Virus record (IMG/VR): IMGVR_UViG_3300044542_000107
Location: 1 to 64,000 of that record
Source of the DNA: a virus
Taxonomy: Duplodnaviria; Caudoviricetes
Direction: 5' to 3' (one strand)
DNA: 64,000 bases
A program made the position numbers and the translations under genes. The number at the start of each line of letters is the position of its first letter. The stretch's first letter is position 1. Below are positions 2,841 to 60,821 of this stretch, one piece after another. A model generated the notes under the pieces. The model searched no databases and was not told the DNA's origin. It saw only the letters and a program-made list of their open reading frames with translations.

Positions 2841-4285
2841 GTCTCACCATCACTGACATGTTCTGTGGGGCCGGCTGATCCGCCACCGGCGCCGAGCTGG
2901 TGCCAGGGGTCGAGGTTGCCACCGCCATGAATCACTGGCAGCTGGCCATCGACACCCATCACGCCAACCACCAGCAGACCCGCCACATCTGCGCCGACAT
3001 CTCCCAGACCGACCCGAGGTACATCCCCACCACGGACCTGCTGTGGGCGTCACCTGAGTGCACGAATCACAGCGTGGCACGTGGCCGCAAGCGCGTCACC
3101 TGGCAGGATTCGTTGCTCGACGAGAAGCCGCTCCCGGACGAGGCCGCACAGCGCTCCCGGGCCACGATGTGGGATGTTCCCCGCTTCGCCGAGGTGCACC
3201 ACTACCGGGCCATCGTCACCGAGAATGTGGTCGACGCCCGCAAGTGGATCATGTTCGACGCATGGCTCCACGCCATGCACAGCCTCGGCTACGCCCACCG
3301 CATCGTCTACCTCAACTCGATGCACGCCCAGCTTGGCGGATTGCCGGCGCCTCAGTCCCGCGATCGCATGTACGTCGTGTTCTGGCGCAAGGGCGACAAG
3401 GCTCCCGAACTCGAGAAGGTCACCCGGCCGCGCGCCTGGTGCCCGGACTGCGGGTGCATGGTCGACGCCGTCCAGTCGTGGAAGAGGCCCGACCGGCCGT
3501 GGGGACGGTATCGCGCCCAGTACGTCTACCGGTGCCCGCACTTCGAGTGCCGCAACCGGATCGTCGAGCCCAGGTGGCTCCCCGCCGCCGCGGCCATCGA
3601 CTGGTCGATCCAGGGCGAACGGATCGGCGACCGCACCAAACCCCTCTCCCCCAAGACCCTCGCCCGCATCAAGGAAGGGCTCCGCCGATTCGGCGCGCAC
3701 TCGATGCACCTGGAGGCTGCTGGGAACACCTACGACATGGCGTCCGGCAAGCCCGGCTCCTACCTGCGGGCGTGGCCCACCGACCAGCCACTCAAGACCC
3801 TGTCGACCACCGCCACCAAGGCGCTCCTGGTGCCGGTGGAGGGCTGCGACGGCAAGCACGCCCGCCCGGCCACGGATCCGATGCGCACCAAGACCACGAG
3901 GTTGGAGACCGGACTCCTCACCCCCTACTACGGCGCCTCCGAGACGGCCCAGCCCACCGACAGGCCAATGGGCACGCTCACCACCGTGGACCGCTTCGCC
4001 CTGGTCACCCTGCGCGGCCACAACGCACCCAAGCCCGTCACAGAACCCATGGACACCGTGTGCGCCGGAGGGAATCATCACGGCCTGATGACCGTGACCG
4101 ACGACGACGTGAACGCCTGCAGATTCCGCATGCTCGAACCAGATGAGGTGAAACGCGGCATGGCCTTCCCGGCCGACTACGCCATGCTCGGCACCCGAAG
4201 GGAGCAGGTCAAAATGGCCGGGAACGCGGTCACCCCTCCGGCCGCCCGGGATCTCATCTCGACGGTCGCAGAAGCGCTCGCCTGA
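2837..4285 (+). pseudogene. C5-cytosine DNA methyltransferase with in-frame TGA at 2876-2878
   Basis: MSLTITDMFCGAG*SATG in frame with SPEC, ENV, QSRDR, GNAV motifs; intact homologue at 49555. Confidence 0.85.
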
Positions 4286-4303
4286 CCACCACAACGCATT
4301 CAC

Positions 4304-4329
4304 AAGCCGCCGAACCAGGCGGCTTTTTT
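4304..4329 (+). terminator. Intrinsic terminator
   Basis: AAGCCGCC-gaacca-GGCGGCTT followed by T run. Confidence 0.8.
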
Positions 4330-4349
4330 CATGCCCGAAAGGAGTAGCA

Positions 4350-5087
4350 ATGCCTAGACGATCTGAGCTGAGGAAGATGGTCGAATCGTGCGCCAGGACG
4401 CGGCGCATCGGCCAGGTGTGGGACGACTGGATCCACATGTGCGCGATCGCGCTTCGCCGAGGTCAACTCGACGGCGCCGAGCAGCGTGAGGCCGACTACC
4501 TGCGCATCGCAGGCAGGTACACCGACGCACAGGTGCAGACCATGGCTGAGGCGCTCGGCCAGCTGGTTTCAGACATGGATGCCGAGGTTGATGATCACCT
4601 CGGGAAGCTGTTCATGGAGTTGGAGATCTCGTCGGATCCGCAGGGGCAGTTCTTCACGCCGCTGCCTGTCGCCAGAATGATGGCCGATGTGTCCATGCCG
4701 GACATTATGAAGGCTGTCGAAGAGCGCGGGCATGCGACCGTCGATGACTGCGCCTGCGGGTCCGGTGTGATGCTGCTGGCCGCGTTTCAGCAGGCCCGCG
4801 CGGCCGGTTTGAATCCGCAGACTCAGCTGTGGTTTCACGGCACTGACAAGGATCCGACGTGTGCGCGGATGGCTTTCATTCAGCTGTCGTTGATCGGGGC
4901 TCCTGCTGTCATCGTGCACGGCGACACGCTGTCGCTCGACGAGTGGGATGTGATGCCGACGTTGTGGCACATCGCCGGTGGCTGGGGCTGGCGACTTCGA
5001 CGTCCTGCCGCCCCGACGGTTCAGGTGGAGCAGCCGGAGCCGGTCGACGTGCCGACGCAGGACGCGCTGTTCGAGGAGGCGTCGTGA
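4350..5087 (+). CDS. Short N6-adenine-methyltransferase-like SAM-binding protein
   Basis: GQFFTP and DCACGSGVML motifs; no NPPY/F motif IV. Confidence 0.75.
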   Translation: MPRRSELRKMVESCARTRRIGQVWDDWIHMCAIALRRGQLDGAEQREADYLRIAGRYTDAQVQTMAEALGQLVSDMDAEVDDHLGKLFMELEISSDPQGQFFTPLPVARMMADVSMPDIMKAVEERGHATVDDCACGSGVMLLAAFQQARAAGLNPQTQLWFHGTDKDPTCARMAFIQLSLIGAPAVIVHGDTLSLDEWDVMPTLWHIAGGWGWRLRRPAAPTVQVEQPEPVDVPTQDALFEEAS

Positions 5088-5242
5088 GGATCAGGTTCTG
5101 CTGTCCGACGTGCGGTCGGCCAGCTCAGCGGACCGTCGCGTATCTGCGCGACAGGGCCGTTCTGGAGCGATTCTGCTACTGCCGCGCCGGTCACTACTGG
5201 ATCGTGAAAGGAGGTGCTCGAGATGTGGTTCAAGGTCGATGA
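5084..5242 (+). CDS. Small Zn-ribbon protein
   Basis: GAGGAGG RBS; CPTC...CRAGH. Confidence 0.5.
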   Translation: MRIRFCCPTCGRPAQRTVAYLRDRAVLERFCYCRAGHYWIVKGGARDVVQGR

Positions 5243-5996
5243 CAAGGCCTACGGGCATCCGAAGTTCCTGATGTGCTCGACGCAGGCCATCGGGGTGTGG
5301 ATGCTGATGGGGTCCTGGTCGTCGGAGCAGCTGACCGACGGGTTCATCCCGAAGGGTGCGCTGGGGATGATCAGGGCCGCCGACGGGGATATCGCCGAGC
5401 TCATCGGGGCCGGTCTGCTCTCCGCGGTTGATGGTGGCTGGCAGATGCATGACTTCGGTGACTACAACCCGTCATCCGAGCAGGTGAGGGATGCGAGGGC
5501 CAAGGCGGCCGAGCGTCAGAGGAGGAAGCGCAGGGGTTCAGATGGTCGGTATGTCACGCGTGAGTCACGGCGTGACATACAGCGTGACTCACGCGTGAGT
5601 CACGCTGTGAGTAACGATGTGACTTCGCGCGATGTCACGTCCACCCCGACCCGACCCGTACCCAATAGATCTACATCACCGACTGACGTCGATGATGATG
5701 CGATTGATGCAGTCGATGGCATCGCCGATGACACGATCAGTGACACGTTCGAGTCATGGTGGAAGCACGTGCCGAAGAAGGTCGGCAAGGGTCAGGCCAG
5801 GAGGTCCTTCAAGCAGGCGCTCAAGAAGACCGACCTGTCGACGCTCACCTCGGCGATGGACCGCTACGCGAAGTCTGTCGAGGGATCCGATCCGAAGTTC
5901 GTGGCGCATCCTGCGACGTGGCTGAACGGCGAGCGCTGGGACGACGAGCCCGACATCCCCCAGGCCGACGTGATGCCCGAATGGTGGCAGCGATGA
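5223..5996 (+). CDS. Phage replication initiator (RepA-like)
   Basis: MWFKVDD...TDGFIP...HDFxDYNPS; C-terminal HPATWLNGERW; internal iterons. Confidence 0.8.
   Translation: MWFKVDDKAYGHPKFLMCSTQAIGVWMLMGSWSSEQLTDGFIPKGALGMIRAADGDIAELIGAGLLSAVDGGWQMHDFGDYNPSSEQVRDARAKAAERQRRKRRGSDGRYVTRESRRDIQRDSRVSHAVSNDVTSRDVTSTPTRPVPNRSTSPTDVDDDAIDAVDGIADDTISDTFESWWKHVPKKVGKGQARRSFKQALKKTDLSTLTSAMDRYAKSVEGSDPKFVAHPATWLNGERWDDEPDIPQADVMPEWWQR
5553..5640. repeat. Iteron-like GTCAC/GTGAC cluster, probable origin of phage A
   Basis: Dense inverted repeats, e.g. AGCGTGACTCACGCGTGAGTCACGCT, inside the rep gene. Confidence 0.65.
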
Positions 5997-32181: not shown

Positions 32182-32350
32182 GTGCGTCTCAGCGGCCCTC
32201 GTCTGCCAGCCGGTCCAGTGCCCGCGCCAGCACCGGGTTCAGCTGCCGGATCGTCTCCTCCACATCGTCCGCCCACCCCGGCGAGAGCCAGCTAACCCTG
32301 ACGCTGTAGCCAGGAGGGGATCCGGGGCGCTGCGCCCCTCAACGACGCAG

Positions 32351-32571
32351 TGACTCACACATTGACTCACTAACAGACCCCACAATCGTGCTCTGACCCG
32401 CTCTGCTGGCTGATTCGACAGGTGCCGTCCCGAAATCCAGGTGATCAGCGGCTAGACTCGACAGCATGAGCAGGGGCACCGCCAAACCGCATCTGGCTAG
32501 GGGGAAGCTTCGATTATCGCCGTACCGCTGGGGCGCTGCACCCGCAACGCTAGACTCACTGAATGACTCAC
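32351..32571. other. attP-like site with paired integrase arm-type repeats
   Basis: (T/A)GACTCAC at 32351+32363 and 32552+32564 (12-bp period), directly upstream of int. Confidence 0.7.
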
Positions 32572-55118: not shown

Positions 55119-55191
55119 AGCGACGTGGAGCAGTTGGTAGCTCGCGGGATTCATGCTCCCGAGGTCGCCGGTTCGAATCCGGCCGTCGCCA
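55119..55191 (+). tRNA. tRNA with CAU anticodon, initiator (fMet)-like
   Basis: Full cloverleaf: AGCGACG/CGTCGCC, GAGC/GCTC, CGGGA-TTCATGC-TCCCG, GCCGG-TTCGAAT-CCGGC; CCA not encoded. Confidence 0.9.
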
Positions 55192-55223
55192 CGAAGAGGT
55201 TCGGTGAGCCGATCCTCTGCACG

Positions 55224-55447: not shown

Positions 55448-55615
55448 ATGGCACGCAGGAAGCCCCGCATCCCATCATTCGACACCATGAAGTCGCCCCT
55501 ACAGCGCACCCGAGCCCGCCGTGCAGTCGACATCATCGCAGGCACACAGAACAGTGGATCTCGTCGCAGTCGCCGTGCAGGTTCGGCCCGCGGCTCCCGA
55601 TCAAGCGACAGCTGA
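55448..55615 (+). CDS. 55-aa Arg/Ser/Gly-rich basic peptide
   Basis: AAGGAAGG RBS; MARRKPRIPSFDTMKSPLQRTRARRAVDIIAGTQNSGSRRSRRAGSARGSRSSDS. Confidence 0.6.
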   Translation: MARRKPRIPSFDTMKSPLQRTRARRAVDIIAGTQNSGSRRSRRAGSARGSRSSDS

Positions 55616-55637
55616 CACACAACAGCATCGAGTCACC

Positions 55638-55931
55638 ATGTCAACATCGCGGACAGGAACAGCACAACACAAGCGTTGGAGAACAGCAGTCCTCAAGCGT
55701 GACCGAGACAATGGCGTCGAGCGCTGTCCCTTATGTGGTGTCGCACTCGACTTCGAGCATGGCAAACAGCCCAACAGTGCCGAAGCCGACCACATCATCC
55801 CCCACAAGTGGGGCGGACAATCCACACTCGACAACGGGCGCACCATCTGCCGCCACTGCAACCAGTCCAGGGGCGCCAAACTCACCCCCAGGGACCCCCC
55901 AACGCACACCACCACCCTCATCAACTGGTGA
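55638..55931 (+). CDS. HNH endonuclease (terminase-associated)
   Basis: CPLC...EADHIIP...GG...N...CRHCNQSRG. Confidence 0.9.
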   Translation: MSTSRTGTAQHKRWRTAVLKRDRDNGVERCPLCGVALDFEHGKQPNSAEADHIIPHKWGGQSTLDNGRTICRHCNQSRGAKLTPRDPPTHTTTLINW

Positions 55932-56231: not shown

Positions 56232-56741
56232 ATGGACACGATGACCGGGTGCGCATGGTGCGGGCGTGAGTTCAGGCGAGCCTCAACTGGCCGGCCTCGC
56301 CGCTTCTGCTCCACGCGCTGCCGCAAGGCCTCCTCACGGCATCCCCTGCCTGCGTCGATGCTGGCCGCCGCTCGGTGGACGCGCGCCGATGGTAAACGGC
56401 CCTGCCTACCGGATGGGCGTCTGGCTTCTTCGCGGGACCCGTCGACCTGGGCGCGGTTCTCCGAGGTGCAGCGTGGCGCCGGTGACGGCTTCGGGTTCAT
56501 GTTGGGAGGCGGGTTCGGCTGCTATGACCTTGACCATTGGCCTGATGATCGGGCGCGGCGTTTCGTCGCGGCTGTGCGTGAGCCTGTGTTGTGGGTTGAG
56601 CGTTCGGTGTCGGGTGAGGGCGTGCATGTGTTCTTCCAGGGGCCGGAGGTGCGGGGCCGGCGGTCCATGGTGGGTGGTCGTCCGGTGGAGCGGTACAGCT
56701 GGGCAAGGTTTATCCGGGTGACTGGCGTCGCGTTCCGGTGA
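56232..56741 (+). CDS. Zn-finger + stand-alone primase-polymerase (AEP)-like domain
   Basis: CAWC...FCSTRC; GFGFML...DLDH, ERSVSGEGVH, ERY...RFIRVTG; TAGACT -10 six nt before ATG. Confidence 0.75.
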   Translation: MDTMTGCAWCGREFRRASTGRPRRFCSTRCRKASSRHPLPASMLAAARWTRADGKRPCLPDGRLASSRDPSTWARFSEVQRGAGDGFGFMLGGGFGCYDLDHWPDDRARRFVAAVREPVLWVERSVSGEGVHVFFQGPEVRGRRSMVGGRPVERYSWARFIRVTGVAFR

Positions 56742-56788
56742 GCGCTCCTGTGTGCCTGCCTGGCGCGTCCTGCCTGGGCAGACAGTTG

Positions 56789-56822
56789 GGCCCCGGGAGC
56801 CATCGGCTCCCGGGGCCTGTTC
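56789..56822. terminator. Terminator between convergent genes
   Basis: 13-bp stem GGCCCCGGGAGCC/GGCTCCCGGGGCC. Confidence 0.8.
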
Positions 56823-56830
56823 TGTGCCGG

Positions 56831-57163
56831 TCAGATGATGTCCCGCATGTCTGACAGGATCTCCGTAGCGGCTTCGTCGGCGTCCAAGCCGGTGATGCGC
56901 TGGTACTCCTCGTATTCGTGCCGGCGATCGAGCGGCCCCCGGAATGCGACTTCCAGGTAGACCGGGACTGGCCGCTGCTGCTCGTCGTAGTCGTATGCGG
57001 CGACATCGGCGTAGCACTCGTCCCCTGCCGTGTTGGTGTATGGCCCGGCCGTCATGATGGCCCGTGATGCCCACCGGGAGAGTTTTGGCGCCCTCCCGTC
57101 GCTTCTCAGCATGTTCTCCAAGCTGTCGAGCAGTTCCCGCTTGCCATCGGTCATTGCCTGCAT
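56831..57163 (-). CDS. Hypothetical protein
   Basis: GGGAGGG RBS. Confidence 0.65.
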   Translation of the reverse strand: MQAMTDGKRELLDSLENMLRSDGRAPKLSRWASRAIMTAGPYTNTAGDECYADVAAYDYDEQQRPVPVYLEVAFRGPLDRRHEYEEYQRITGLDADEAATEILSDMRDII

Positions 57164-57219
57164 GATTCCCTCCCGTGGTTGGTTACCCCGGGCCTTTCGG
57201 CCCGGGGCGGATGATCAGT

Positions 57220-57456
57220 TCAGAAGGTGGCTCCAAGATCGAAGGGGCTCATGCCGGTCCCTCGCAGGTTCTCTTCGAGGATGGCCTTGTTATGGAGGAA
57301 CTCGGCCTGATCCAGGGTGAGGGTGTCGGTGACATGCTCGATGACCCGATGCACCAGGCCGTCGACCGCCGGGTCTCTCAGCTCGCCGGCGTAGCAGTCG
57401 GCGGCGAAGCTGGCGTAGAGGTCCCGGTTGATGGCTTCGAAGGTTTCGCGGTTCAT
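57220..57456 (-). CDS. Hypothetical acidic protein
   Basis: AAGGAG RBS. Confidence 0.7.
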   Translation of the reverse strand: MNRETFEAINRDLYASFAADCYAGELRDPAVDGLVHRVIEHVTDTLTLDQAEFLHNKAILEENLRGTGMSPFDLGATF

Positions 57457-57481
57457 GTCTTGCTCCTTGGTTGGGTGACCC

Positions 57482-57524
57482 GTTGACATGAACTAGTAAA
57501 CCCTGCTGCCTATTCTCTGTCAAC
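57482..57524. promoter_or_regulatory. Inverted repeat GTTGACA...TGTCAAC, probable promoter/operator
   Basis: AT-rich, consensus -35 hexamers on both strands, next to small HTH gene. Confidence 0.55.
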
Positions 57525-57677
57525 CTTCGCCGCGAGCTTGAAGACTTGCGCGCGAGACAGTCCCGAAGCCTCCGCGATCTCCTCCCAGGTGTGCCCGGCT
57601 TCCCGGGCCGCCCGGATCAGCTCCGGCCGGCGCTCCCTGAGGTCTCGGTACCAGCGAAGTTCAGTCAGTGGAGTCAA
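57510..57677 (-). CDS. 55-aa HTH protein (not in ORF track)
   Basis: TTG start with AGGGG RBS; IRAAREAGHTWEEIAEASGLSRAQV. Confidence 0.75.
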   Translation of the reverse strand: MTPLTELRWYRDLRERRPELIRAAREAGHTWEEIAEASGLSRAQVFKLAAKVDRE

Positions 57678-58026
57678 GGTCGATCCCCTGCCGGCGCGCG
57701 AGCTGGTGCCCGTCGATGTACTTGTCCCCGATGTCGATAGCGTCGATGGCCCGCAGATAGGCCTCCTTGGCCTCCCTGCTGCGGAAGCACACCGCCACCC
57801 AGTATTCGGAGTCGGTGGCGTCGTATACCCGCTTCTCTTCGTTCTTGGCGCGCTTCCGGTAGGCCTTCTCCATGGCCGTCAGCTCCCGGCCGGCGTCCTC
57901 TTCCCGGTTGCCGGTGTAGTCGACACCGGCAAGCGGGTCGGGCGCTTGCGCACCGATCGGCGACCCCCCGAAGTTGATGTGCCCCCCGAGTGCGGGCCCG
58001 TTGCCTCCGAACTTGATGCGTGGCAT
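57661..58026 (-). CDS. Uncharacterised partner of the PP-loop enzyme
   Basis: GAGGAG RBS directly after the enzyme; DSEYWVAVCFRSRE...GDKYIDG. Confidence 0.8.
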   Translation of the reverse strand: MPRIKFGGNGPALGGHINFGGSPIGAQAPDPLAGVDYTGNREEDAGRELTAMEKAYRKRAKNEEKRVYDATDSEYWVAVCFRSREAKEAYLRAIDAIDIGDKYIDGHQLARRQGIDLDSTD

Positions 58027-58027
58027 G

Positions 58028-58795
58028 TCAGTTGCTCCTCTCGATGATGTGTTCGTGCCTGAAGATCTCCAGCTCGGCGAGCGGGAACCACTCCAACAGT
58101 TGCGCGTAGTCGCGTGGCGCGTTGCGCTTCAAGGGCTCGATGAACCGGTAGTCCAGGCCGTCGAAGCTCCGCCCGAACCACTTGTAGTCGATCGGAAGCG
58201 GCACCCCGTGCTTGTCCTTCCAGGGCAGCGGTAGGTCGGCGTCCCGTAGCCGGTCGCGTAGCTCGGCGATCACCCAATCGGCGACCGGCGACACCTTGTG
58301 GTTGCCGGCCTTCATGATCCCGTGCCTCGACAGGCTGGCGCGTCGCGGAATGGAGTCGGCGGCCCGGACCCCGTCAGCCACCCAGGTGTCCGAAGGCAGC
58401 CCGAGGTCTTCCTTGATCAGCTCCCAGGTTTCGTTGTATCCCAGTTCGGGCATCCGTGCCGCCTCGATGATTGCGCACCGTTCCGGCGGCTGGAAGATGA
58501 AGTTGTTCAACCACCGCCACAAGCTCGGGTGCGGGTAGCGGTGAATCGGCTGTCCGAATCCGTCCTCTAGGCGCGTGATGGTGTCCTCGATGAAGTCCAG
58601 GCACTTCCCAGGCTTTCGGCCTGGCACTAGATACATGTAGGCGAGTTCGGTGTGGATGCCGGCGTCCTTGAGTGCGAGGTTCGCCGCGATCGCGTCCTTG
58701 CCGAGACTCATCGCCACAAGGACCGTCCGGTTCTCGTCTTTCAGTCGTTGCCGGATCTCCTCTGTCGGCGGTTGATTCTTGATGTAGGTTGTCAT
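58028..58795 (-). CDS. PAPS-reductase-like PP-loop (adenine nucleotide alpha-hydrolase) protein
   Basis: VLVAMSLGKDA PP-loop; GVRAADSIPRR; SPVADW. Confidence 0.8.
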   Translation of the reverse strand: MTTYIKNQPPTEEIRQRLKDENRTVLVAMSLGKDAIAANLALKDAGIHTELAYMYLVPGRKPGKCLDFIEDTITRLEDGFGQPIHRYPHPSLWRWLNNFIFQPPERCAIIEAARMPELGYNETWELIKEDLGLPSDTWVADGVRAADSIPRRASLSRHGIMKAGNHKVSPVADWVIAELRDRLRDADLPLPWKDKHGVPLPIDYKWFGRSFDGLDYRFIEPLKRNAPRDYAQLLEWFPLAELEIFRHEHIIERSN

Positions 58796-58802
58796 GCTCG
58801 GC

Positions 58803-58831
58803 AGTCTACTTCTGAGACTCTTGTAAGGCAA
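58803..58831 (-). promoter_or_regulatory. SigA-type leaderless promoter of the PP-loop operon
   Basis: TTGCCT-17 nt-TAGACT-7 nt-ATG. Confidence 0.75.
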
Positions 58832-58852
58832 TTCGCGGGAGGAGGTGATCAC

Positions 58853-58954
58853 ATGCGTCCCAACTCCAGGGGAAGGGTTCCCAGCGCCTCCGGGCGAGGT
58901 ACCTCCCGGGGAGCCGGGCGGCTCCCGCGACGCGCTTCCAGCGCGAGCGGCTGA
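58853..58954 (+). CDS. 33-aa Arg/Gly/Ser-rich peptide
   Basis: Very strong RBS GGAGGAGGTGATC; MRPNSRGRVPSASGRGTSRGAGRLPRRASSASG. Confidence 0.7.
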   Translation: MRPNSRGRVPSASGRGTSRGAGRLPRRASSASG

Positions 58955-58989
58955 CGGTCCAGCGGCTCCTGACAGACGGAGGTGCAATT

Positions 58990-59307
58990 ATGGCTCAGCC
59001 TGAGCTTCCCGGCGACATCGAGTGGCCTGATTCCACACGGGAATGGTGGAGCGCATGGGGCGACGATCCCCGCACTGAAAAGTGCGCAGACGTCGACTGG
59101 CTCTATCTCCTCGACGGTGCGCTCCTCCACGCCGCCATCTGGAGTAACGGCGACTTCGCGTCGATCGGGAATCTTCGCTCTCACGTGAAGCTGTTCGAGC
59201 AGCGCTTGAAGGAACTCAATGGAGACCAGGCCGGCAGCGGGGAACAGACCCCGACGGCCGCCCTCGCCATGATGGAGAAGTACCGGAAGCGCCGCAAGAC
59301 CGGCTGA
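58990..59307 (+). CDS. terS: Terminase small subunit
   Basis: QPELP...W...TREWWSAW...W.YLLD.ALLH; precedes TerL. Confidence 0.8.
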   Translation: MAQPELPGDIEWPDSTREWWSAWGDDPRTEKCADVDWLYLLDGALLHAAIWSNGDFASIGNLRSHVKLFEQRLKELNGDQAGSGEQTPTAALAMMEKYRKRRKTG

Positions 59308-59324
59308 CAGGAAGGGGATGGCAC

Positions 59325-60821
59325 GTGATCGGGAATCAGGTTCCACGGTTGCGTGTCGCCCCCTCCTACAAGCAGACCGCCGGCACGGATGCCGGCCTCC
59401 TGGGGAACGCGTACGGGTTGAAGCCCGACCCGTGGCAGCAGTCGACGCTTGATGACTGGCTGGCCGAGACGAAGCAGGGCAAACTACTTTCAGGTGTGGG
59501 CGCCTTGATGGTGCCGAGGCAGAACGGCAAGAACGCCGTTCTGGAGGTTGTCGAACTGTTCAAGATGACGATCCTCGGCAGGCACATCCTCCACACCGCC
59601 CACGAGGTGAAGACGGCCCGCAAGGCCTTCACCAGGCTGCGTTCCTTCTTCGAGAACGAGCGCGAATATCCGGATCTGGCCCGCATGTTGAAGACGGTCA
59701 GGTCGACCAACGGGCAGGAGGCGATCATCCTCCACGCCGCCGACTGCGAGACGATGGCGCCCGGTTGTAGCTGCAAGGGCGGCGGATCGGTCGAGTTCGT
59801 GGCCCGTTCGCGCGGTTCCGCGCGAGGCTTCACTGTTGACGATCTGGTCTGCGATGAGGTGCAGGAGTTGACCGACGAGCAGCTTGAGGCGCTTCTGCCG
59901 ACGATCTCGGCGGCACCGTCCGGGAACCCGCAGCAGTTGTACACGGGCACCCCGCCCGGTCCGACGGCCTCCGGCGAGGTCATTATGCGGGTCCGCGAGC
60001 AGGCGTTGGCCGGCAAGTCGAAGCGGATCGCGTGGACAGAGTTCTCGATCCCTGACGACGCTGACCCTGACGATGCGGTGGCGCACTGGCGGGACAACGC
60101 GGTGCAGGTGAATCCGGCGCTCGGCATCAGACTGTCGATCCAAACAATTGAGGACGAGCTGGCCGGCATGTCCCCGGAAGGATTCTGCCGGGAAAGACTC
60201 GGACGTTGGGATCGCGCGGCCGGGGTGCAGCAGGCGATCCCGAAGGCCAAGTGGGCGGCCACGGCGGTCAGCAGGGCGCCGGATGGTGTGCGGAGTTTCG
60301 GTGTGGCGTTTTCGGCCGACGGCTCCAAGCAGACGATCGCCGGTGCCGTGAAGGCGTCCGGGGTGATCCATGTGGAGGTGATCGCCGCCCAGTCCGGCAA
60401 CACGGACGCCGGCATCAAGTCGCTGGCCGATTGGCTGGCGGAACGGTGGCACACCACGGCACAGATCGCAATCTCCGGCCGTGCCGGGGGTTCGGTGCTG
60501 TACAGGGCTCTTCGGGACCGTGGGGTTCCGGAGAAGGTCATCTGGACGGCGTCGACCGGCGAGTACTTGGAATCGTGCTCGCTGCTGATGGATGCGGTGC
60601 AGTCCGGGAATGTGACTCACCCGGCCGCCGACGACCCACAGCATGACGTACTTGAGCAGTCCGTGGCTGTGTGTGTGAAACGTCAGCGTGGCGGCGCGTG
60701 GGGCTGGGAGGCGGCCACCGCGAACGGCGACGAGACGCCCCTCGAAGCCATCTCCTTGGCGTACCGGGCGGCCAAGATGACCAGACGAAGACCCGGGACA
60801 AGACAGAAAGCGTTGGTGTGA
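59325..60821 (+). CDS. terL: Terminase large subunit
   Basis: PRQNGKN Walker A, LVCDEVQE Walker B, GTPP, NPALG. Confidence 0.95.
   Translation: MIGNQVPRLRVAPSYKQTAGTDAGLLGNAYGLKPDPWQQSTLDDWLAETKQGKLLSGVGALMVPRQNGKNAVLEVVELFKMTILGRHILHTAHEVKTARKAFTRLRSFFENEREYPDLARMLKTVRSTNGQEAIILHAADCETMAPGCSCKGGGSVEFVARSRGSARGFTVDDLVCDEVQELTDEQLEALLPTISAAPSGNPQQLYTGTPPGPTASGEVIMRVREQALAGKSKRIAWTEFSIPDDADPDDAVAHWRDNAVQVNPALGIRLSIQTIEDELAGMSPEGFCRERLGRWDRAAGVQQAIPKAKWAATAVSRAPDGVRSFGVAFSADGSKQTIAGAVKASGVIHVEVIAAQSGNTDAGIKSLADWLAERWHTTAQIAISGRAGGSVLYRALRDRGVPEKVIWTASTGEYLESCSLLMDAVQSGNVTHPAADDPQHDVLEQSVAVCVKRQRGGAWGWEAATANGDETPLEAISLAYRAAKMTRRRPGTRQKALV

Follow-up and report, generated by a model that had tools for sequence, protein, structure and literature searches.

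We find that a PP-loop enzyme gene lying beside the terminase genes of a tailed phage belongs, together with a small partner protein and short, very basic proteins that share a C-terminal tag, to a module that recurs across many phages. The stretch analysed, hereafter the window, is 64,000 nt long and comprises positions 1 to 64,000 of the 93,359-base virus record IMGVR_UViG_3300044542_000107 (Duplodnaviria; Caudoviricetes); the module stands immediately upstream of the small terminase gene, terS (Table 1). An initial annotation, made from the letters alone, had pointed to the enzyme, a tightly linked 121-aa partner, a helix-turn-helix (HTH) protein and a 33-codon open reading frame (ORF) ahead of terS, all of which are present at the coordinates it gave. 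When comparing 84 related loci (4 deposited phages and 80 viral contigs), we observe a relative of the partner directly downstream of the enzyme in 81 of them (tblastn), and the tag is enriched approximately 600-fold in the zone beside terS. These two results exclude chance as an explanation, and the proposed grouping of enzyme, partner and basic peptide into a module that recurs near the terminase genes is upheld.

The enzyme and the partner are closely linked. In the window the stop codon of the enzyme (58030..58028) and the ATG of the partner (58026..58024) are one base apart, and in 78 of the 81 loci the two genes overlap or abut, with gaps of −23 to +9 nt, as the tight linkage described initially would have it. 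The three loci without a separate partner are L047 and L068, where it is fused to the enzyme, and L049, which ends 364 nt after the enzyme gene. The fusions encode 407 aa in L047 (4001-5224) and approximately 407 aa in L068 (in the frame of 3875-5224); each unites the enzyme with two partner-domain copies and is followed by a tagged peptide, and the fused partner domain is recognised with an hhalign probability of 95% (E = 3.9e-8). At a template modelling (TM) score of 0.89, the enzyme model matches an Atlas cluster with 53 members of 409 aa, which is consistent with recurrent enzyme-partner fusions. A search for longer fused forms of the partner, over 8000 candidates of 385-2000 aa, found none at E ≤ 0.001; this counts as weak evidence. 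The partner starts with a Gly-rich, disordered tail and has, towards its C-terminus, a conserved domain of some 90 aa, with the motif D-P-L-x-x-V-x-Y-T-G followed by a small domain. Its model has a predicted local distance difference test (pLDDT) score of 77, with the disordered, Gly-rich residues 1-21 below 50, and the first residue is not a glycine. The domain is duplicated in forms of about 205 aa, which carry a second, N-terminal copy (A-T-D-[ST]-E-x-W...C-F); partner genes of 189-219 aa with such an internal duplication are found in L027, L030, L036, L038, L046 and L050. We found no family for the partner in Pfam, NCBIfam or PADLOC, and no match to its fold in the PDB (best E 7.4). Judging by these gene arrangements, the partner is translationally coupled to the enzyme and obligatory, and in some phages it is fused to it.

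Next, we examined the interval between the partner and terS. Nearly every locus holds one to five short ORFs here, most behind GGAGG-type ribosome sites, which encode very basic proteins unrelated in length and sequence but with the common end R-[S/T]-S-G-S-stop; the full tag spans approximately 14 residues, with the consensus [R/K]-x-[A/S]-x-S-x-x-x-x-R-[S/T]-S-G-S-COOH. For the enrichment count, the 84 loci were clustered at 90% enzyme identity, yielding 40 clusters, and the strict tag was defined as R-[STM]-S-G-S-stop. It occurs 38 times in the 36.6 kb of partner-terS zone on the terS strand and once in the 591 kb elsewhere, the sole outlier lying between enzyme and partner in L023. The strict tag is present in 24 of the 40 clusters and the loose form in 30, so that the survey of homologues suggested in the initial annotation recovered the conserved adjacent short ORF as well as the partner. 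Across 69 distinct tagged proteins, lengths range from 26 to 131 aa and net charges from +2 to +19, a Shine-Dalgarno core of 4 or 5 bases precedes 63 of them, and the upstream tag positions are conserved as R/K at −14 (67 proteins), Ala/Ser at −12 (67) and Ser at −10 (56). The tag stands behind a flexible Ser/Ala/Gly linker in proteins that otherwise differ, among them types of about 30-38 aa starting with M-R-N, of about 50 aa and of about 95 aa; in Bifidobacterium-like contigs we find tagged proteins of 27, 46, 96 and 131 aa. Ten tagged proteins compared with PHROGs had no family at E ≤ 0.01. Upon examining 58 distinct 24-nt tails, we observe that each of the three serines is encoded by AGY as well as TCN codons, that Gly uses all four codons, and that the stops are TGA in 44, TAA in 8 and TAG in 6. 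Such synonymous variation places selection on the protein and not on a DNA site, and on this ground we reject a DNA-level reading in which the tag would be a pac motif or a recurring site for terS binding.

Several of these genes are missing from deposited records. In Pasteurella phage Pm86 (L003, MH238467), tagged ORFs at 5131-5247 and 5260-5358, between ORF52 and ORF53, are absent from the annotation, as are the small ORFs of Bifidobacterium phage BigBern1 (L002:2219-2320). An ORF of about 100 aa with the tag sits between enzyme and partner, instead of after the partner, in L023 (4567-4869) and also in L024. Variant ends, which may be decayed tags or altered specificities, are seen in L001, L002, L027, L031, L041/L045/L053/L054 and L004, and take the forms of an internal S-G-S with extra basic residues, S-x-H-[RK], or R-S-S-G-T. 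The protein gp173 of Gordonia phage Morgana ends in S-A-S-G-D-S.

The 33-codon ORF of the window (58853-58954) runs on in frame past its TGA with R-S-S-G-S-stop. It aligns with 23 type-A peptides of 30-38 aa and falls short of exactly their last 6 residues, the TGA standing at tag position −6 and the family alignment holding through −7; read through, the window matches the family consensus over tag positions −14 to −1. When comparing positions 58000-59400 with Logan contigs from four runs of four studies, we found in each run one contig spanning the whole interval with 19-22 differences from the window, and in all four contigs position 58952 is G instead of T, giving Gly in place of the stop. 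The stop of the window is thus either an error or a nonsense change private to it, and the tag is retained in the lineage. On this evidence the 33-codon ORF is, by its sequence, the tagged protein of this phage, truncated by the TGA. It is preceded by GGGAGGAGG at 58837-58845 on the plus strand, 7 nt before its ATG, and the strong ribosome-binding site noted initially is therefore in place. At positions 58850 and 58852, within the spacer between this site and the start codon, the window has C and all four near-identical contigs have T. An Rfam search of 57400-59400 at E ≤ 1 returned no match, so a known RNA element does not explain the small ORF. Elsewhere in the record, a tag-like end (R-R-R-S-G-S) closes an ORF at 32239-32451 on the minus strand; it is out of context, has no evidence of a ribosome-binding site and is probably due to chance, and the record holds no further convincing tagged ORF.

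The enzyme carries the motifs AMSLGKDAIA and ADGVRAADSIPRRA. Its relatives number 850 proteins at E ≤ 0.001 among 1572 candidates, are approximately 60% identical and mostly have no product name. In an alignment of 27 sequences, the invariant parts are S30-x-G32-K33-D34, Y-P-H-P, D141-G-V-R-A-x-D-S-x-x-R-R and a long block at the C-terminal end, and cysteines are absent from the invariant and nearly invariant columns. In PHROGs the enzyme matches phrog_2302 (5.8e-20), which is named as a 3'-phosphoadenosine-5'-phosphosulfate (PAPS) reductase. The window enzyme matches no Pfam family at E ≤ 0.1, PF01507 and QueC/PF06508 included; PF01507 is weakly matched by 14 of the 27 relatives (best 2.8e-5), and the D-G-x-R-x-x-[DE]-S...R motif region is common to the enzyme and the PAPS-reductase-type models. 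NCBIfam reductase models gave only sub-threshold scores (TIGR02055, 13.8 bits against a cut-off of 235; NF002537, 13.2 against 154), PADLOC models, those for Dnd and Ssp included, gave zero matches at E ≤ 1 for enzyme, partner, HTH protein and peptide, and sequence searches of the PDB with the enzyme as single sequence and as profile gave nothing below E 0.16. The AlphaFold model of the enzyme (pLDDT 92) has 41 PDB matches at E ≤ 0.001, all of them PP-loop enzymes among the matches listed, with YcfA, TilS, MnmA, TtuA, ThiI and GMP synthetase at TM 0.37-0.45; TtuA and the TtuA-TtuB complex 5gha are likewise present. The enzyme has both the S-G-G-x-D-S-type loop (SLGKDA) and the Rossmann-like alpha/beta fold of the PP-loop superfamily, and sequence and model together identify it as a predicted, divergent PP-loop ATP pyrophosphatase of the PAPS-reductase superfamily with an intact ATP loop.

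Better-known members of this superfamily depend on cysteines: CysH is defined by a catalytic C-terminal Cys motif, and DndC by cysteines of an iron-sulfur (Fe-S) cluster or persulfide. The intact ATP loop and the lack of a conserved cysteine argue that the enzyme is neither a PAPS reductase nor DndC. As a CysH-type PAPS/adenosine-5'-phosphosulfate (APS) reductase it would lack the conserved C-terminal cysteine and scores far under the reductase cut-offs; as DndC or SspD, it has no conserved cysteine, no Dnd or Ssp model match and no Dnd or Ssp partner genes. No sulfur-assimilation genes are found among its neighbours (primase-polymerase, HNH, terS, terL), as had been remarked, and the view that this is not an ordinary sulfur-assimilation enzyme stands. 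The name PAPS reductase has likewise been given to lambda NinC, as far as the accessible part of that source goes (PMC10695390). We rejected NinC as a close relative, since only the PP-loop aligns (hhalign probability 5.5%), and translated lambda NinD contains no tag. In Lactobacillus phage LR1 the enzyme is 25% identical, but a partner relative and the tag were not found, and we therefore do not extend the module to LR1.

To what extent the tag goes with the enzyme or with the packaging genes was assessed using a control set of 80 loci drawn via the window's large terminase gene, terL, one of which carries the enzyme (L118, the contig of L005). In the 79 enzyme-free loci (712 kb; 44 with at least 1 kb upstream of terL), the strict tag occurs in 0 of 79. 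Conversely, the tag is found in at least three mutually non-matching terminase contexts, namely the window type, that of Pasteurella phage Pm86 and the L041/L053 type, and across terminase contexts without detectable mutual similarity the enzyme remains 44-62% identical. The tag is also present in prophages of Arthrobacter, Brachybacterium, Microbacterium, Kingella, Eikenella and Neisseria. Its absence from the enzyme-free loci and its presence beside unlike terminases argue for the enzyme-partner pair, and against the capsid or the terminase, as the putative reader of the tag. We also ran the three-protein multimer prediction that the initial annotation had put forward, using the enzyme, partner and 30-aa tagged peptide of L009 with ATP and scoring the peptide. 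The score was 0.54, against 0.01 for the best control and 0.00 with an unrelated protein in the enzyme's place; the runs shared at least 47% of their contacts, with a peptide pLDDT of 47 or more. Of 80 solved complexes, 58 cleared the mark for a pass, as did 2 of 110 mismatched pairs; 7 of these solved complexes and both mismatches passed at 0.60 or under, and the calibration is rough (own alignments, ATP riding along). The peptide is thus favoured over its controls by a weak pass, and the predicted complex offers a hint of tag binding.

Taking these results together, we tentatively favour, with a confidence slightly short of even, the reading that the enzyme and its partner act on the tag at the expense of ATP. 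The pair would bind the C-terminal tag of the basic proteins, ATP would be spent to adenylate the C-terminal carboxylate of the tag or one of its residues, and an amine or hydroxyl would then attack the activated group, giving amidation, cyclisation or ligation; the reaction would coincide with expression of the packaging genes. We infer from the comparisons above that the enzyme uses the tag as its substrate, and likewise what its chemistry and biological purpose would be. Precedents within the superfamily are diphthine-ammonia ligase, whose target is a protein carboxylate, the lasso-peptide cyclase, beta-lactam synthetase, and TtuA, which binds the tail of TtuB. Among the options of the initial annotation, modification or ligation of the peptide by the enzyme fits the comparative data best, because the C-terminal tag of the peptide family is conserved at the protein level and co-occurs with the enzyme. 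Overall, the module and the non-sulfur enzyme have held and this option is the best fit, whereas the argument from gene orientation, the HTH protein as a core component and a lysogen defence are not supported.

A number of observations weigh against an action on the tag. No experiment and no solved relative ties this enzyme family to a protein substrate, and the constant place beside terS would fit DNA packaging or DNA modification equally well. The co-occurrence counts are phylogenetically non-independent, with the enzyme-bearing loci picked via the enzyme, and the complex prediction passed weakly, its contacts not being listed. Ten of the 40 clusters lack even the loose tag with enzymes that appear intact, which implies either that a free R-S-S-G-S end is not indispensable or that those copies are decaying. 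The small ORFs of such clusters have other ends, in L001, L002 and L031 for example with extra residues after an internal S-G-S. In the window record itself, an intact enzyme and an intact partner stand beside a truncated tag.

The strongest rival, unlikely in our estimate, is that the enzyme modifies a nucleic acid, either phage DNA around packaging, DNA modification being among the options of the initial annotation as well, or tRNA, and that the tagged proteins are binding helpers or co-packaged cargo whose tag docks on the enzyme-partner pair. The module lies beside terS and terL in several terminase contexts, the tagged proteins are strongly basic, DndC belongs to the same superfamily, and the nearest folds are the tRNA-modifying PP-loop enzymes TilS, MnmA, TtuA and ThiI (at the TM scores given above). 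Insertion of sulfur is nonetheless unlikely because a conserved cysteine is lacking; neither enzyme nor partner has a recognised DNA- or RNA-binding domain (Pfam and NCBIfam, and the partner fold search), PADLOC gave no match to a Dnd or Ssp model, and the occurrence of up to five unrelated proteins per phage with the same tag is left unexplained.

It is improbable, more so than an action on nucleic acid, that the tag is a targeting peptide read by the capsid interior, the portal or the terminase, with the enzyme-partner activity unrelated to it and sharing only the neighbourhood. The arrangement of several cargo-like proteins with one C-terminal tag behind a flexible Ser/Ala/Gly linker, in genes that head the packaging and head operon, is what such targeting would look like. 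Against it, the tag is constant across terminase contexts of no detectable mutual similarity, where the enzyme stays 44-62% identical, it is missing from all 79 enzyme-free terL-related loci, and the complex score vanished once the enzyme was swapped for an unrelated protein, within a prediction that passed weakly overall. Short terminal tags of this kind are known from the cargo-loading peptides of encapsulins and the capsid-targeting sequence of T4, which are read by a shell protein without ATP chemistry. The module resembles them in its unrelated proteins, its short terminal tag behind a flexible linker and its setting of an HK97-type capsid, but its tag goes with the enzyme-partner pair from one packaging module to another.

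Upon examining the arrangement of the operon, we observe that the HTH gene overlaps the end of the partner gene by 17 nt and matches phrog_686 (2.2e-11) and, under the Pfam cut-off, HTH_23 (5.8e-5). An HTH gene follows downstream on the same strand in only 2 of the 84 loci (L005 and L009), so the HTH protein, counted as a component of the module in the initial annotation, is by this distribution lineage-specific and not a core part. On the minus strand, a −35 hexamer TTGCCT (58831..58826) and a −10 hexamer TAGACT (58808..58803) are separated by a 17-nt spacer and end 7 nt before the enzyme ATG, as described initially. A consensus scan for promoters and terminators over 56700-59400 returned 0 promoter-like sites, the scanner having omitted these hexamers on account of a consensus match at no more than 8 of 12 positions. 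Among the three relatives that are likewise divergent in layout (L001, L005 and L009), the versions TTGACA-17-TAGACT, TTGACA-17-TATACT and TTGACA-18-CACAAT occur, each 6 nt before the ATG; with better hexamers at a like distance in three relatives, the putative promoter of the enzyme operon is conserved in the divergent lineage. That layout is confined to 3 of the 61 loci with a detectable terS relative, namely L001 (Cutibacterium phage CA1NRNZ), L005 and L009, whereas in the other 58 the enzyme, partner, tagged ORFs and terS follow in this order on one strand. The opposite orientation thus characterises a single lineage, and the temporal separation of enzyme and peptide that had been read from it is not supported for the module. 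Two module copies approximately 41 kb apart (L168 and L169) are found in Acidipropionibacterium timonense NZ_LR027558.1, both in the window-type divergent layout and with a tag not detectable by regular expression. The primase-polymerase gene lies directly upstream in 42 of the 43 loci that have a match to it.

This distribution bears on the possibility that the module is a lysogen-expressed defence or exclusion system, with enzyme, partner and HTH protein transcribed from their own leaderless promoter and the late peptide protecting the phage, which we consider very improbable. It would draw on the conserved promoter-like hexamers and the antisense enzyme operon of the window and its three relatives, but 58 of 61 loci are co-directional with terS, leaving no room for separate control. 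No PADLOC match was obtained at E ≤ 1, and the module occurs in the sewage-isolated phage CA1NRNZ and in Gordonia phages isolated free; the initial suggestion of a lysogen defence with peptide immunity is accordingly not supported, the PADLOC result being negative and the prevailing layout not suggestive of defence. Finally, an ordinary auxiliary metabolic gene encoding a PAPS/APS reductase that supplies sulfite, as the database names have it (phrog_2302 and NCBI product names) and as argued in the accessible part of a preprint on Bifidobacterium prophages, which calls the presence of the gene there puzzling (10.64898/2026.02.18.706556), has next to no likelihood, given no invariant cysteine in 27 sequences, no PF01507 match at E ≤ 0.1, NCBIfam reductase scores of 13-14 bits against cut-offs of 154-235, an intact ATP-type PP-loop, no sulfur-assimilation neighbours and a gene always paired with the partner.

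Several known systems resemble the enzyme-partner pair and its tag in part. TtuA, a PP-loop enzyme of tRNA 2-thiolation, takes the extended C-terminus of TtuB, a small ubiquitin-like sulfur carrier, into its active site, and the likeness extends to the fold, 5gha being among the matches; TtuA needs a cysteine-held Fe-S cluster and TtuB ends in a Gly-Gly thiocarboxylate, whereas the enzyme described here has no conserved cysteine, the tail ends in Ser, and several unrelated proteins bear it. With CysH and DndC/SspD, the enzyme shares the superfamily (through the weak PF01507 matches in 14 of 27 relatives) and the D-G-x-R-x-x-[DE]-S...R region, but it lacks their catalytic or cluster cysteines, has an ATP-type PP-loop and is accompanied by a partner of no known family. 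A likeness to ribosomally synthesised and post-translationally modified peptides (RiPPs), whose lasso-peptide cyclase is an Asn-synthetase-like PP-loop enzyme, is found in the diverse cores with one recognition sequence, the adaptor-like partner beside an ATP-using PP-loop enzyme and the clustered genes. Unlike in RiPPs, the recognition sequence stands at the extreme C-terminus, the proteins reach 131 aa, genes for a protease, an exporter or immunity are absent, and the partner has no sequence or fold match to known recognition elements.

A further parallel in organisation is provided by the QueC family, whose PP-loop enzymes act on the terminus of a partner protein, according to the accessible part of the report (PMC13279940). 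As described in the portions of the sources available, Cap9-Cap10 of the type IV cyclic-oligonucleotide-based antiphage signalling system (CBASS), which performs deazaguanylation, and QatC-QatB are, like the module, specific pairs of a PP-loop enzyme and a small partner whose tail is unstructured, and in both cases a short terminal protein motif is the proposed site of action (PMC13279940; 10.1101/2025.04.06.647259). The enzyme described here comes from a different PP-loop family, with no QueC/PF06508 match, and no 7-deazaguanine genes are seen with the module. By the same partial accounts, QueC systems serve bacterial defence and act on an N-terminal glycine motif of the partner, whereas the module is phage-encoded beside the terminase and has a C-terminal tag on separate proteins.

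The window's enzyme and partner genes lie within a block of minus-strand genes set among plus-strand ones (Table 1). The small basic gene (58853..58972) is the first of the packaging operon, and after terL the plus strand continues with portal, head protease and scaffold genes. The 89-aa and 110-aa minus-strand ORFs match no family in Pfam or PHROGs, and a relative of the 110-aa ORF is found in L005. The G+C content of the record is 0.65-0.69 over 1-50000 and 0.63-0.66 over 50001-93359, and the 93-kb record may represent a composite or a prophage flanked by host DNA.

Table 1. Positions of the module and its neighbours in the window
Feature	Position	Strand	Remarks
PP-loop enzyme gene (P0001)	58795..58028	minus	255 aa; translated ORF
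Partner gene (P0002)	58026..57661	minus	121 aa; directly after the enzyme
HTH gene	57677..57510	minus	55 aa, TTG start; last of the tight trio
Two ORFs	57489..57220 (89 aa), 57163..56831 (110 aa)	minus	finish the block antisense to its neighbours
Divergent intergenic region	58796..58852	both	57 nt between enzyme ATG and small-ORF ATG
Tagged small basic protein gene, type A	58853..58972	plus	33 codons, in-frame TGA 58952-58954, then R-S-S-G-S-stop 58955-58972
terS	58990-59307	plus	PF25673 3.2e-7, above cut-off; phrog_1897 1.1e-26
terL	59325-60821	plus	phrog_9 2.8e-55
tRNA-Met (CAT)	55119-55192	plus	between phrog_8013 gene and HNH endonuclease, within the phage region
HNH endonuclease	55521-55931	plus	neighbour upstream of the minus-strand block
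Primase-polymerase-like gene	56232-56741	plus	neighbour upstream of the minus-strand block

In the available parts of the sources, phage 'PAPS reductases' are treated as auxiliary genes of sulfur metabolism or left as a puzzle (10.64898/2026.02.18.706556; PMC6145125). A literature search, with supplementary files lying outside it, found no description of the tag or of the three-part module, and a search on the letters of the tag returned only unrelated papers among the matches listed. For one large branch of these phage genes, covering prophages of Bifidobacterium-like gut contigs, Propionibacteriaceae, Micrococcales, Neisseriaceae and Pasteurellaceae, the name 'PAPS reductase' appears to be wrong, the gene being half of an enzyme-partner pair tied to a hitherto unannotated class of small C-terminally tagged proteins. 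Dozens of real small genes, such as the two in Pasteurella phage Pm86, would thus be unannotated in deposited phage genomes.

A bolder proposal, which we hold to be rather improbable, is that of a phage protein-tagging system, in which the enzyme, with the partner as adaptor, would adenylate the tag of the cargo and ligate the cargo to a common acceptor, the cargo then being packaged and delivered to the next cell. The acceptor might be phage DNA, the capsid interior, the Gly/Lys-rich tail of the partner or a host protein, and the role of the enzyme would resemble that of E1 enzymes or PafA for ubiquitin and Pup. If true, it would be the first conjugation system driven by an enzyme of the PAPS-reductase type, and the first built around a C-terminal R-S-S-G-S tag. 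Overall, a defined 14-residue tag together with an enzyme and a partner turns a vague annotation into a testable hypothesis, and might uncover a new ATP-dependent way in which phages modify proteins at the time of packaging.

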